DNA of 42,130 nucleotides from a virus, in the UHGV virus genome UHGV-0207969. One strand, 5' to 3'. The notes below the pieces were generated by a model. That model was given only the letters and a program-made list of their open reading frames with translations, did not search any database and was not told where the DNA came from. Within the stretch, counting starts at the first letter, position 1. Each line of letters starts with the position of its first letter. This document shows, one piece after another, positions 36,696 to 40,309 of the stretch. The position numbers and the translations under genes were made by a program.

Positions 36696-37334
36696 CTAAA
36701 ACACCTCCGAACTTGACTTTTTTTGAGCGTATCTGAATACTTCTTCCATATCTAAAATGCTAGTCCGCTTAATTGCCTCTATATAATTATTTTTCAGTTT
36801 GGTTATCGTTTTAGCTACTACTCTAGCTTCTGTTTCATATTCACACTCTAAATACAAAAGGATGGTATTCAGCAAAGCAAAATTTATCATCTCTTTAGAA
36901 TTTTCAATATTAGGTTTGAATTTTTTGTTATACTCATGAACCTTTTTGATAAACCTAATTTGCTTGTCAGATAACTGACGATTTACCTTAACTCTTCTGT
37001 CCGCTCCGTCGCCACCGTGAGTTAAATTGTACCCTTCTCCAAACGATTTAAAATAATCGATATAATCTATTTCTTTTTCGAATAATTCTAGCTCATTTTC
37101 CGCAACATCGATTCTTTGTATGCAAAAGTTTTCCACACCATGTTTTCTTATAGCTCTACCTATAAGACTATTAGCTTTGCAATGCTCGGAGAATCTTTCT
37201 TCTAAGCTTCTTCTGGTGATTCCTACATACTTTTTATTATTAGTTTTGTTCGTAATAAGATAAACGATGCCATATACTTCCTTAGTGATGATGTACTCAT
37301 CAGCAAAAGCTAGTTGTCTTGGATTTAAACTCAT
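36696..37334 (-). CDS. GIY-YIG homing endonuclease (free-standing)
   Basis: N-terminal YGIVYLITNKTNNKKYVGITRRSLEERFSEH is the GIY-YIG motif with the downstream R and E. C-terminal DNA-binding region. Confidence 0.8.
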   Translation of the reverse strand: MSLNPRQLAFADEYIITKEVYGIVYLITNKTNNKKYVGITRRSLEERFSEHCKANSLIGRAIRKHGVENFCIQRIDVAENELELFEKEIDYIDYFKSFGEGYNLTHGGDGADRRVKVNRQLSDKQIRFIKKVHEYNKKFKPNIENSKEMINFALLNTILLYLECEYETEARVVAKTITKLKNNYIEAIKRTSILDMEEVFRYAQKKSSSEVF

Positions 37335-37909: not shown

Positions 37910-38126
37910 TTTGATACCTCCTTAATCTCTCCACAATATGCGGATCACTCTTCCAGCCATGCCCGATGTATATAAGCCTATGCCGATCGATATACTCATC
38001 GTCAAACTCTGCATAGCATTCCAACAGAGTGTGCTTGGGTTTGAGTTGCGCTTGTCTGATGTTAGCGTGTGATAGTATGCCTATGGATAGTTGTAAGTAA
38101 TAGTAGAATCTTAGGTCATATGTCAT
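37902..38126 (-). CDS. hypothetical protein
   Basis: 74-aa ORF. Its start overlaps the stop of the phosphoesterase gene. Confidence 0.4.
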   Translation of the reverse strand: MTYDLRFYYYLQLSIGILSHANIRQAQLKPKHTLLECYAEFDDEYIDRHRLIYIGHGWKSDPHIVERLRRYQNA

Positions 38127-39381
38127 ACGTCACCCTCAACCTTTCGCTATCATACTCAAACAACTGCAATACTTTCTTGCCCATCGTCCAACCATTCTCA
38201 ATCTCATAGCTGTCATTAGGCTTGATTGTGCCTAGCTGCCGATGAATCACGCCTTGGTAGTCGTTCGTCTGTTGCGTGTGGAAATGACCAGTGATTATCT
38301 CTCGTGTAGTTGCATTGCTCCACATACTTGGGAATTCGGTAGCAAACAACATAGGCAAATCCTTCCGCTTGCCATACTGCCCATGCGTAATCATGATCGC
38401 TACGTTGTCCAACATGAACGCTTGACGGTACTTGTTGTGATAATTTACTTTGATATCTGGATACTTGGCTTCTAGGAATAACAGAAACATGTACTCCAAA
38501 TTTTCCGAATGGTTTCCGCCCGCATGCTCGACAGTCACTTTGAGAGAGTGTCTTGCACATTCGGTAATCAGCACATCAAAAAAGGAGCGAGCGTCCTTGA
38601 TAGCTGTCTCCATATTTACATCGTCTAGTACTGTGCCAGCCATCGTGACTGACTTCTTAAGCTGGCTGCTATGAAATAAATCTCCAAGCTGACCAATAAC
38701 AATCTGCTTATAGCCTTTTGAGATAACTTCAATCATTCTCGCTAGCTTATCTTGTAAATCTTCTAGCTTAGTGATGCCAAAATGCCAATCAGCCAAACCG
38801 ATGAATAAGTTTCTGTCACCCGTCTTGATTGCGGTTAGTTTTACTGGCTCAATCGATTCGGTGAAGGCAGATGCATTAAACGCCTTGTGCTTTGGCTTCA
38901 CCACAAACTTCAACTGCTGATTCCATTTCTGGATATCCGCTGTTGTGGTCGTCCACTCATTGGTGGTCACTTGAGATATCTCCCACTCTTGCGGATCATA
39001 GCCCTTGTACTTGAGAATGTCTTCTGGCGTTTTGCTGTCCTTCTGGTAGAAAGCCATCTTCACATCGAATTCAGCTTGGGAGATAGTGCCATCAATGTTA
39101 TATCGTTTGTTTTCGTTGATTGATTGACCATCTATGTTGCGAGGTGGCGTTACTTTATTCAATCGTTGACGTTTGCTTTTTACACTAGTCTTGGTAAATT
39201 CTCTACCATACTCGTTTGATAATATGATTGCTATTTCTTTGTTGGTATAACCTTCATTGATTAAATCTTTGAGCCTATCAATTTCTTGTTCCGTCCAGTT
39301 TATGTCTGCCACCTCGCTTTTCTGCAAAATAAAAAGCCACTCGCAAGGAGTGACTAATAAACGACTGAAACGTATTAGCAT
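38116..39381 (-). CDS. HTH-domain protein fused to a calcineurin-like metallophosphoesterase
   Basis: Phosphoesterase motifs in order: GLADWHFG, QLGDLFH, GGNHSE, ITHGQ, ITGHFH. N-terminal INWTEQEIDRLKDLINEGYTNKEIAIIL looks HTH-like. The start is uncertain because there is no strong RBS. Confidence 0.65.
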   Translation of the reverse strand: MLIRFSRLLVTPCEWLFILQKSEVADINWTEQEIDRLKDLINEGYTNKEIAIILSNEYGREFTKTSVKSKRQRLNKVTPPRNIDGQSINENKRYNIDGTISQAEFDVKMAFYQKDSKTPEDILKYKGYDPQEWEISQVTTNEWTTTTADIQKWNQQLKFVVKPKHKAFNASAFTESIEPVKLTAIKTGDRNLFIGLADWHFGITKLEDLQDKLARMIEVISKGYKQIVIGQLGDLFHSSQLKKSVTMAGTVLDDVNMETAIKDARSFFDVLITECARHSLKVTVEHAGGNHSENLEYMFLLFLEAKYPDIKVNYHNKYRQAFMLDNVAIMITHGQYGKRKDLPMLFATEFPSMWSNATTREIITGHFHTQQTNDYQGVIHRQLGTIKPNDSYEIENGWTMGKKVLQLFEYDSERLRVTYDI

Positions 39382-39532
39382 TATTAAGAGGCTCTTTCAG
39401 TTTTGTTCAATTAAAGCAACCTACACGAGCCCGACGTCCGCTCCTCCGCCCTTCCACAGCCTCAGTTGCTTTCATAGTTAGTTCGCCTTCGGTAGCGAAA
39501 CACCAAGTTTTAATGGGATAACTATAAACCCT

Positions 39533-39636
39533 ACGTAAGCGACAGGATTCGAACCTGCAAACGACTGCATCTGGCGCGCATCCTTTATAAGCAGTCACGG
39601 TCGGCACCGCGCGTTTTTCCATTTTCGCCACACTTA
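39533..39636 (-). ncRNA. tRNA-like element (104 nt), non-canonical length
   Basis: 7-bp acceptor pairing GTAAGTG/CGCTTAC. U8, D-arm GCG-AAAATGGAAAAA-CGC and T-arm GCAGG-TTCGAAT-CCTGT. A central region of about 50 nt does not fold as a normal anticodon/variable arm by eye. Confidence 0.35.
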
Positions 39637-39638
39637 CT

Positions 39639-39776
39639 ATGTCACTGGCAAGGATTTGCACCTTGCATGTCGCATAACCTTCGGCAAAATAAAGCCTTAC
39701 GTTTCGTCTTGTGATTAACGCTCTTTACCTATGAAGGACTTACCGTATTAAGCGTCTACCTATTCCGCCACAGTGA
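39639..39776 (-). ncRNA. second tRNA-like element (138 nt) in tandem
   Basis: Acceptor pairing GTCACTG/CAGTGAC. D-arm GCGG-AATAGGTAGA-CGC and T-arm-like GCAAGG-TGCAAAT-CCTTGC. Far too long for a standard tRNA. Confidence 0.3.
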
Positions 39777-39895
39777 CTATCACCCACAGAATAATTTTTA
39801 CGTATCAAAAGGAGGTTGAATGCCGTTGTGCTTGTGGGCGATATCTGATAATACTAATTTACCACGTTTTTAGACCTCGAAAGTTTGAAAATCGT

Positions 39896-40309
39896 TTAAA
39901 TATCAAGGCTTCTATCCAATTCCTCGAAGAATTTGTCTCTTAAAGTGAATGCTTTATTCCTACCGCACTTGATAACTAGATTATCAACCAACCCTTGCAT
40001 AGTGTATTGCGGAAATCGTTTGATATACAACTCTCGAATGATCGTCTCAGTGTCACTGCCGCACTCATCGAGAAGTTCTTGTACAATCTCCTTATTGCGT
40101 TTCAACCGCCGAATCTGCTTATCCGTCTCGATGGTCCACAATGTGCCAAACATTGTATCACTGTCGCTTCTTGTTCCCTTGATATCCCCATTAACATCCT
40201 CTTCTCGATACGGAACTCGAATCTCTTCTTCAAGCTTTCTGACGTACTTATCCGTATCTCGGTAATCTTTCAACACTGCCTTGACTCGTTCAACACGCCA
40301 TTTCTCCAA
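39896..40309 (-). CDS. ArpU-family late transcription regulator
   Basis: 137 aa in the typical position upstream of the packaging genes. Layout MEKWRVERVKAVLKDYRD...IKRFPQYTMQGLVDNL matches ArpU (assigned from recall). Confidence 0.6.
   Translation of the reverse strand: MEKWRVERVKAVLKDYRDTDKYVRKLEEEIRVPYREEDVNGDIKGTRSDSDTMFGTLWTIETDKQIRRLKRNKEIVQELLDECGSDTETIIRELYIKRFPQYTMQGLVDNLVIKCGRNKAFTLRDKFFEELDRSLDI

Follow-up and report, generated by a model that had tools for sequence, protein, structure and literature searches.

We analysed a 42,130-nt stretch of DNA, referred to here as the window, from the virus genome UHGV-0207969. It belongs to a siphophage or prophage of Enterococcus whose relatives in the phage database are all distant. 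On the minus strand, positions 39313-39895 (583 nt) form a self-contained non-coding RNA unit between late-activator and packaging genes of an Enterococcus temperate phage. The unit contains, in this order, a conserved upstream block, a leader hairpin, two tRNA-shaped cassettes (elements 1 and 2), three hairpins and an intrinsic terminator (Table 1). A preliminary description of this DNA, made from its letters alone, had recognised the two elements lying back to back on this strand and had taken them for tRNA-derived RNAs with inserts rather than standard tRNAs. Both points hold: element 1 has the core of a tRNA-Leu-like family that is apparently undescribed and absent from Rfam 15, and element 2 matches the Rfam tRNA model. 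Both elements are tRNA-derived RNAs without a usable anticodon. The spacer had been drawn from 39382 to 39895, and in this respect the description needs correction. The unit is longer because the downstream gene most likely starts at GTG 39312, with the intrinsic terminator upstream of that start, and not at ATG 39381. The mechanically called ATG would put the terminator (39355-39326) inside the open reading frame (ORF), and the homologue in phage phiEG37K (ORF3) is annotated from the corresponding GTG.

Element 1 is enclosed by a 7-bp acceptor stem of Watson-Crick pairs only (GTCACTG/CAGTGAC; 39777-39771 and 39647-39641). U8 and G9 follow at 39770-39769, and the D arm (39768-39752) reads GCG-GAATAGGTAGA-CGC in DNA, its loop being GAAUAGGUAGA in RNA. 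The T arm (39666-39648) has a 6-bp stem and the sequence GCAAGG-UGCAAAU-CCUUGC, and the discriminator is A at 39640. Element 1 is therefore 7/6 in its acceptor and T stems with a UGCAAAU loop, instead of 7/5 with UUCRANY as in the canonical tRNA stack. No anticodon arm with a 5-bp stem and a 7-nt loop was found in it; 85 nt, which we call the cargo (39751-39667), take the place of the anticodon and variable arms. The Rfam and ARAGORN checks that had been proposed gave a divided answer. Rfam, including its tRNA model, had no match to element 1 even at E<=10 and did match element 2, and ARAGORN in its default and tmRNA modes called neither a tRNA nor a tmRNA anywhere in the window, to which the Rfam tmRNA models had no match either. 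Sub-threshold Rfam matches to JA04, abiF, MicA, YrlA, VqmR and ToxI were set aside as noise. A covariance model of the family core only (R1) matches both halves of element 1 with about 30 bits each, and element 1 carries every signature feature of the family. R1 was rejected for scoring whole elements, as members with a long cargo split into two half-matches.

We collected this family by BLAST of the phage database, by an exact-core scan of IMG/VR and by looser scans that covered IMG/VR and, with a single genome for each species, GTDB. BLAST detected element 1 only through a 32-nt perfect match covering the T arm and the acceptor 3' strand, always in unannotated sequence, in temperate Enterococcus phages (phiFL2A/B) as well as in 150-kb lytic myophages (EfV12-phi1, EFP01 and others). 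In Enterococcus phages G1 is exactly the first conserved position and N73 the last; the flanking sequence varies from one phage group to another. The exact Enterococcus core is present in 39 IMG/VR contigs, in which the first 26 and the last 27 nt are essentially identical and the middle, of 0, 40, 63, 78, 86 or 108 nt, is unrelated. With the looser scans the family comprises at least 178 unique members at no fewer than 204 loci, with 112 or more distinct acceptor stems; the members measure 52-301 nt (median about 123). Hosts are mostly Bacillota (Bacillus, Paenibacillus, Enterococcus, Weissella, Leuconostoc, Pediococcus, Lachnospiraceae, Oscillospiraceae and others), and some members come from Saccharibacteria, Gracilibacteria, Fusobacterium, Tenericutes and Bacteroidales. 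Cultured phages of Enterococcus, Listeria, Lactobacillus, Leuconostoc, Bacillus (phi3T), Paenibacillus and Brochothrix carry the family. In the phage records that we inspected, members are never annotated or are overlapped by 'hypothetical protein' calls.

The family signature is N7-UG-GCGGAAUAGGUAGACGC-[cargo]-YAU-G(Y/R)(R)AGG-UGCAAAU-CCU(Y)(Y/R)C-N7'-N. U8, G9, A14, A15, G18, G19 and the entire T loop UGCAAAU, including G55, are invariant. From its sequence, the core is predicted to preserve the contacts U8-A14, A15-U48, G18, G19-C56 and U54-A58 of the tRNA L-shape, and the D-arm half alone aligns to annotated tRNA-Leu genes. CCA is encoded in none of 112 representatives; the trailers are U/A-rich, with U as the first trailer base in 38 of 71. 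Some members (L052, L057, L065, L129, L132, L141 and L159) have, besides the cargo, a further large stretch of 40-100 nt inserted in the D loop (GGAAUAG[...]AGUAGACGC). Open-access full text, searched also with the core sequences, yielded no description of the family, and a catalogue of 10,006 phage RNA motifs (PMC10690425) may include it, unnamed. What is new here is a family with a defined signature; phage tRNA mimics are already known in kind.

Covariation across related phages, which had been suggested as a check, supports the structure strongly. We scored acceptor pairing in all co-occurrences of the D-arm and T-loop motifs, without any pairing filter (n=126). All seven pairs form in 95 of them and six of seven in another 25, as against 3% with seven of seven when partners were shuffled. 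In an alignment of 123 core sequences with the cargo removed, 98.5% of the cells are paired and 13 of the 16 pairs show changes on both sides; none of 500 shuffles, and no slid register, came near the observed pairing. The sixth pair of the T stem covaries (G-C to A-U), and therefore the acceptor/T stack is 13 bp long, split 7/6. The acceptor helix may extend by one more pair in some members. The tRNA-derived core is under strong RNA-level selection.

The cargo is hypervariable, structured and often pseudoknotted. It ranges from about 7 to 250 nt across the family and ends in YAU in 124 of 133 cases. A closing helix of at least 6 pairs, its 3' strand abutting the YAU, was found in 56% of the cargos and in 24% of the controls. 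About one fifth of the cargos, that of the window included, open with 'UUA N5 UAAG', a three-fold enriched motif resembling positions 26-37 of tRNA-Leu(UAA). In sequence, 120 of 172 cargos are singletons, again with the window cargo among them. One 70-nt cargo recurs at four loci, three of which belong to Lentibacillus, Paenibacillus and Siminovitchia; its three helices, one of them a pseudoknot, are 100% paired and have one, two and five compensatory pairs. When antisense pairing was considered, neither the window cargo nor the middle of element 2 showed above-chance complementarity to the rest of the window. A further observation concerns the cargos of L099 and L124/L162, which are alike except for an inverted hairpin loop (ACATACGTTT versus AAACGTATGT) between GCTAAG and CTTAGC, which is suggestive of a flip of the DNA at the palindromic stem.

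Element 2 is another relative of tRNA, of separate derivation, and scores only 8 bits with R1, outside the new family. Its acceptor stem (GTAAGTG/CGCTTAC; 39637-39631 and 39541-39535) is followed by UG and includes one U.G wobble among its 7 bp, so that the perfect acceptor pairing ascribed to both elements applies to element 1 only. The D-arm-like segments were correctly recognised in both; that of element 2 (39628-39611) is GCG-AAAATGGAAAAA-CGC in DNA and GCG-AAAAUGGAAAAA-CGC in RNA. An extra hairpin follows (CGGU-GCCG-ACCG, 39609-39598), and then an arm (ACUGC/GCAGU, 39595-39564) that encloses a 22-nt loop in place of the 7-nt anticodon loop. Thus the middle of neither element is a normal anticodon arm, as the preliminary description had seen. 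The canonical T arm that it pointed out, GCAGG-UUCGAAU-CCUGU (39558-39542), is the one of element 2 and has no equal in element 1, with its UGCAAAU loop and 6-bp stem. The discriminator of element 2 is G (39534). Rfam tRNA (RF00005) matches element 2 with 34.1 bits (threshold 29; E=0.0015 over the whole window), absorbing two 19-nt insertions.

The minimum-energy fold of element 2 consists of exactly these five helices. We found three sequence variants of it: that of the window, L285 and L294/L299. L294 combines C11 to U with G26 to A, which is compensatory in the D stem and destructive to the anticodon stem that an intron model would require. The other differences (acceptor U.G to U-A, T-stem G.U to G-C and one hairpin-loop base) disrupt nothing. 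The five-helix fold is supported because the paired change in L294 keeps the D stem and the other changes preserve the structure. A search for relatives by the T-arm/acceptor pattern found none; three variants came from other patterns, and the remaining metagenome matches are chance occurrences in GC-rich genomes.

Table 1. Features of the non-coding RNA unit and of the flanking genes, in transcriptional order (positions in the window)
Feature	Position	Strand	Support
Upstream gene, 137 aa, late-activator-type transcriptional regulator	39896..40309	-	PHROG 36 'transcriptional regulator', E=9e-16
Conserved block GGTAAATTAGTATTAT just 5' of leader hairpin	39848..39863	-	kept in L001, L010, L014, L032, L037, L285, L294
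Leader hairpin, 11-bp stem UAUCGCCCACA/UGUGGGUGAUA, loop with AACCUCCUUUU	39778..39843	-	fold -16.2 kcal/mol, z=-2.4
Element 1, 138 nt, 7/6 tRNA-Leu-like core and cargo	39640..39777	-	sequence, family membership, covariation
Spacer UA, 2 nt, between elements 1 and 2	39638..39639	-	sequence
Element 2, 104 nt, tRNA-derived, 7/5 geometry	39534..39637	-	Rfam tRNA match, minimum-energy fold, homologues
UAGGG hairpin UAGGGUUUAUAGUUAUCCC after last tRNA-like unit	39515..39533	-	kept in L010, L014, L032, L285, L286, L288, L294
Small hairpin UUCGC-UACCGAAG-GCGAA	39477..39509	-	stem kept, loop changed in L288 and L289
GC-rich hairpin module GCAACUGAGGC...CGUGUAGGUUGC	39416..39469	-	67% GC vs 39% for window
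Intrinsic terminator, 8-bp stem and UUUUUAUUUU, closing the unit	39326..39355	-	kept at 3' end of all related arrays
Downstream gene, 398 aa from GTG 39312, metallophosphoesterase-type exonuclease	38116..39312	-	phrog_704 'DNA repair exonuclease', E=3e-82

Upstream of the cassettes, the block GGTAAATTAGTATTAT is conserved among related arrays, whereas the sequence further upstream differs; it is a possible promoter -10 region. The leader hairpin is conserved in at least 12 related arrays, and its 3' end touches nucleotide 1 of element 1. Within its loop, AACCUCCUUUU has the same sequence as the anti-Shine-Dalgarno end of 16S rRNA; phiFL-type leaders carry GAGG...CCUC hairpins instead. Shine-Dalgarno mimicry or sequestration is possible. 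The gene further upstream had been called ArpU. A regulator it is, by its PHROG match; Pfam has no match to it at E<=0.01, and 'ArpU' is therefore a contextual label.

Downstream of the cassettes, the UAGGG hairpin is also present in phiEG37K, which is without cassettes. The small hairpin was considered as a ToxI RNA (RF02519), since phage pseudo-ToxI RNAs are known anti-defence tools, and was rejected: the match has 19.1 bits against a threshold of 50 (E=0.83 in a 651-nt search) and is a single copy, and toxN was not searched for. The GC-rich block that stood out in the preliminary description is the apical part of a conserved hairpin module, to which Rfam has no match. In nine IMG/VR contigs and L014 the module has a constant base (GCAACYGAGGC...CGUGUAGGUUGC) and an apical part of 30-50 nt that differs. 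The module occurs in the window, L014 and L286-L294, and two of the nine IMG/VR contigs carry it in other genomic contexts. Two small ORFs were discarded because related arrays do not conserve them: one of 84 aa at 39407-39661 and a 22-codon frame across the GC-rich hairpin. Between the RNA array and the small terminase gene lies a GIY-YIG homing-endonuclease gene (36696-37334; Pfam PF01541, weak SegE-like match), which recalls segB inside the T4/T6 tRNA cluster.

The exonuclease gene is a neighbour, outside the RNA unit. A link between the RNAs and this phosphoesterase, one of the candidates of the preliminary description, finds no support: the same array, closed by the same terminator, stands before different genes in its relatives, and phiEG37K has the exonuclease gene, the leader and the terminator with zero cassettes. 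Since the exonuclease gene can occur with no cassettes beside it, the RNA array is not specifically tied to it. We clustered the ORFs around 106 family loci, which derive from the first 78 unique members. An ArpU-like ORF lies upstream on the same strand at 22 loci (median -0.4 kb) and a terminase downstream on the same strand at 33 loci with 12 acceptor types (median +1.4 kb). Two further genes recur downstream on that strand, for HNH endonuclease and for portal. Beyond these generic late-region genes (terminase, portal, HNH, ArpU-like), no conserved protein partner was found among the 106 loci, and the adjacent exonuclease gene is not conserved with the family there.

From leader hairpin to terminator, the Enterococcus arrays measure 160-653 nt and hold from zero to at least two cassettes as counted by script, with a third unit seen by eye in L285. 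The first slot is always occupied by a 7/6 element with a GUCACUG acceptor, in three T-loop/D-loop versions (UGCAAAU, GGCAGUG(A) and UUCGAUU). The second slot holds ARAGORN-called tRNA-Arg(UCG/ACG), tRNA-Glu(UUC) or tRNA-Lys(UUU), or odd units like element 2. A spacing of 1-2 nt to neighbouring tRNAs or tRNA-like units, as between elements 1 and 2, is likewise seen in L003, L138, L285 and L294, and related arrays have structured spacer RNAs between cassettes. In the phiFL-type arrays L002-L042, about 120-250 nt downstream of the element, we observed one tRNA body with UUU (Lys) versus UUC (Glu) and another with ACG versus UCG (both Arg). Some of these second-slot tRNAs have abnormal loops (G33, or loops of 6 and 8 nt). 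Lys, Glu and Arg isoacceptors of that kind are typical targets of anticodon nucleases.

Outside the late region, the member in EfV12-phi1 adjoins a tRNA-Ser and a tmRNA gene. This tmRNA gene (L003, MH880817, 246-596; Rfam 122 bits; ARAGORN tag AKNEELLAVA) is unannotated in the record, and just upstream of the member lies an acceptor-plus-T-arm minihelix remnant, with a mispaired tRNA-Asp-like sequence in relatives. A Clostridiaceae genome (L227, 3160-7758) has a member in an array with ROOL RNA, tmRNA and about 20 tRNAs, and in a Paenibacillus profundus prophage an epsC/EAR antitermination RNA stands directly upstream of the member (L214, 6306-6424). In Listeria phage B025 (L284, 652-1225) the order is a DUF722 regulator, rliG/rli62, the family member (897-1086), mcrA RNA and HNH; the rliG/rli62 Rfam matches (652-889) are just below threshold and end 8 nt before the member. 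The gp64 ORF annotated in B025 shares sequence with the member's 3' end and with the mcrA RNA. Phage phi10403S has rliG in this slot; its expression is high during lysogeny, and virions are produced without it (PMC7397523). The distribution of the cassettes is accessory, modular and tRNA-gene-like.

The preliminary description had offered, among others, tRNA-derived regulatory RNAs or decoys, and this is still the best class of explanation. We tentatively favour the view that the cassettes are excised, stable, non-decoding tRNA mimics acting in trans, perhaps as decoys for tRNA-directed host factors. The unit would be transcribed as one precursor, from which host RNase P would cut the tRNA-like 5' ends and RNase Z the 3' ends, followed by CCA addition. 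RNase Z is the enzyme for CCA-less precursors in Bacillota and would suit these CCA-less substrates with U/A-rich trailers. The products would be stable tRNA mimics unable to read a codon. By analogy with tRNA-Sec, which is excluded from EF-Tu, they are probably kept from EF-Tu and the ribosome by their 13-bp stack, by their altered T loop and by the lack of an anticodon arm. They may then titrate or decoy host factors that recognise the tRNA shape, for example tRNA-targeting anti-phage nucleases, with the cargo as their rapidly evolving part. Septu and retron-Eco7 cut class II tRNA-Tyr in its variable loop and are countered by phage tRNAs with different variable regions, which are proposed to serve as supplement or decoy (PMC13096335).

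A number of observations count against this view of trans-acting mimics. Of 123 members, only 32 have G-C at position 1-72 and 15 have no pair there, which is atypical for RNase P substrates. A consensus promoter scan called nothing at the putative -10 block (39848..39863). Single-sequence folding is no better than shuffles for element 1 (z=-1.4, in a frame offset by 7 nt and without the 5' acceptor strand) or for element 2 (z=-0.4), and we relied on comparative evidence since these z-scores are unimpressive. For the window cargo, no relatives were found in the phage database, among the 172 cargos or in the metagenome scan; its predicted irregular hairpin (z=-0.8) is therefore unsupported. The cargo-less 52-nt form is the commonest type in E. 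faecalis phages, so that the cargo is not essential. The near-invariance of the core across phyla suggests one universal partner rather than many defence nucleases, and we know of no target for such decoys. In a bolder form of the proposal, which we regard as doubtful, the 7/6 body would be a translation-inert tRNA chassis of phages of Gram-positive bacteria and some other lineages, processed and stabilised by the host, that displays rapidly exchanged, aptamer-like or pseudoknotted cargos against different tRNA-directed immune effectors, with nucleases cutting class II variable arms and enzymes modifying the acceptor end as candidate targets. If this were true, the slot would be an RNA-level arms-race locus comparable to anti-CRISPR gene islands.

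The rival explanations differ in which features they leave unexplained. The tRNA shape may be processing punctuation only, as in mitochondrial transcripts and MALAT1-mascRNA: RNase P and RNase Z signals would release and stabilise the RNAs beside them (leader hairpin, spacer RNAs and 3' hairpins) and set the ends of the late transcript, and the excised pieces would be by-products. Gaps of only 0-2 nt separate the units from the leader hairpin and from one another, and both the structured spacer RNAs of related arrays and the rliG match that ends shortly before the B025 member fit such a role. However, any tRNA shape would do for it, which leaves G55, the 6-bp T stem, the tRNA-Leu D loop and the conserved cargo folds unexplained, and members are also found in plain tRNA arrays of lytic phages, where there is nothing to release; we consider this explanation unlikely. 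It is distinctly unlikely that the elements are chargeable tRNA-Leu mimics, in which a core (acceptor, D arm, T arm and A73) that is leucylated or bound to leucyl-tRNA synthetase (LeuRS) would manipulate LeuRS, amino-acid signalling or a non-ribosomal user of aminoacyl-tRNA. LeuRS does not read the anticodon, and a minimal E. coli LeuRS substrate without anticodon and variable arms was reportedly obtained by Larkin et al. in 2002. The core keeps U8, A14, A15/U48, G18, G19/C56 and U54/A58. For the bacterial enzyme, removing the anticodon stem-loop entirely costs only 2.5-fold in affinity, and A73 and the D/T-loop tertiary pairs are critical (PMC2377443). From the identity set of that study, element 1 has A73, U8, A14, G18, G19 and C56, with G55 replacing U55. 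Yet the G18-U55 contact is among the critical ones there, and position 55 is invariably G in the family. In addition, A73 is present in only 100 of 178 members (56%), though its substitution costs 45-143-fold (PMC2377443), and the 13-bp stack displaces the 3' end by one pair.

A regulator of late transcription acting in cis, by leader antitermination or attenuation, RNA polymerase modification or read-through of the terminator at 39355-39326, would suit a location that has the late activator on one side and the packaging genes on the other, all on the same strand, the strong terminator that closes the unit and the epsC/EAR RNA upstream of the Paenibacillus member. Such a regulator is nevertheless improbable: some members belong to tRNA arrays that lie far from late operons, leader and terminator persist in phiEG37K without cassettes, the conservation boundaries are tRNA ends and not transcript ends, and deletion of rliG in the Listeria slot leaves virion production unimpaired (PMC7397523). 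The preliminary description also named intron- or insert-containing tRNAs that could still decode, and this proved very improbable. In its intron mode, ARAGORN builds for element 2 a tRNA-Gly(GCC) with a 5-bp GCGCG/CGCGC stem and the loop GUGCCGG (with U33 and R37), removing 22 nt at 37/38, and the cargo openings that resemble tRNA-Leu(UAA) would point the same way. This model, though, consumes the 3' strand of the D stem, which is lost, and the paired change in L294 breaks the proposed anticodon stem. ARAGORN in standard and intron modes called none of the first 78 family members, relaxed settings gave only scattered and inconsistent calls, and natural members of 52-61 nt pass from the D arm straight to the T arm with no anticodon arm. 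Rfam has no group I intron match, 22 nt are too short to self-splice and we know of no tRNA splicing endonuclease in bacteria. Functionless decay, as tRNA pseudogenes or as the attachment-site leftovers that had been named as a refuting outcome, is hardly credible and is largely refuted by covariation. Truncated remnants do exist upstream of the element in Enterococcus myophages (the minihelix and the mispaired tRNA-Asp-like sequence). Against this, the core hardly varies and its acceptor and T stems covary fully over at least 112 acceptor types, members come from many genera and from lytic as well as temperate phages, including strictly lytic 150-kb phages of Enterococcus, and the elements are full-length, far from any integrase and with both tRNA halves present and paired.

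Among known RNAs, bacterial class II tRNA-Leu is like the family in its 7-bp acceptor, U8, 3-bp D stem, D loop GAAUAGGUAGA (A14, A15, G18G19, A21), U48, C56, U54-A58 and, often, A73. Unlike it, the family has no anticodon arm, a cargo of about 7-250 nt at the position of the variable arm, a T stem of 6 instead of 5 bp, G55 instead of U55 and never an encoded CCA. A 13-bp acceptor/T coaxial helix instead of 12 bp is shared with tRNA-Sec, in which it helps to exclude EF-Tu; there, however, the split is 8/5 or 9/4 and the D arm has 6 bp, whereas the family is 7/6 with a Leu-type D arm and no anticodon arm. The tRNA-like domain of tmRNA also combines an acceptor and a T arm with a large, pseudoknot-rich insert between the D region and the T arm, and tmRNA genes share phage tRNA regions with the family. 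The elements differ from tmRNA in the absence of G3.U70 (at 3-70, element 1 has C-G and element 2 has A-U), of a tag reading frame and of its D-loop-only architecture.

The T4 species 1 and 2 RNAs (rnaC and rnaD) are similar to the elements in length (about 120-140 nt), in having no known function and in standing in tandem with phage tRNA genes; rnaC shares a T arm and tRNA-like termini with the family. They have no sequence relationship to it, a proteobacterial host and no known family-wide 7/6 geometry, and rnaC itself has a canonical GGUUCGAAUCC T arm and, in our reading, an imperfect acceptor pairing. YrlA, a bacterial Y-RNA-like RNA, is permuted: its ends lie in the Ro-binding stem and the acceptor-like stem is closed. 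In the engineered tRNA scaffold of Ponchon and Dardel, a structured RNA reportedly replaces the anticodon arm and the tRNA body gives processing and nuclease resistance; that scaffold is man-made, whereas the family is natural and has its own conserved core variant. Like the elements, YrlA is a non-coding mimic of the D/T-loop elbow of tRNA and is present in some phages (PMC4201824), but its Rfam match here is noise (15 bits against a threshold of 69) and no rsr gene lies nearby. The T5/T6 tRNA-Tyr species that act against retron-Eco7 and Septu are, like the elements, accessory phage relatives of class II tRNAs with altered variable regions (PMC13096335). They are decoding-competent, whereas the elements described here cannot decode.

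If the family is as it appears, it would be among the most widespread phage non-coding RNAs missing from Rfam 15. In practice, it may supply a natural tRNA scaffold for the expression of structured RNAs in Gram-positive bacteria and a simple signature for annotating such elements in the genomes of therapy phages. It would also make three questions testable: how far a tRNA body can be changed (7/6 geometry, G55, no anticodon arm) and still serve RNase P, RNase Z and the CCA-adding enzyme; the use of phage RNA decoys against tRNA-targeting immunity; and the purpose of non-decoding phage tRNA mimics, a question that has stood since the species 1 and 2 RNAs of T4.

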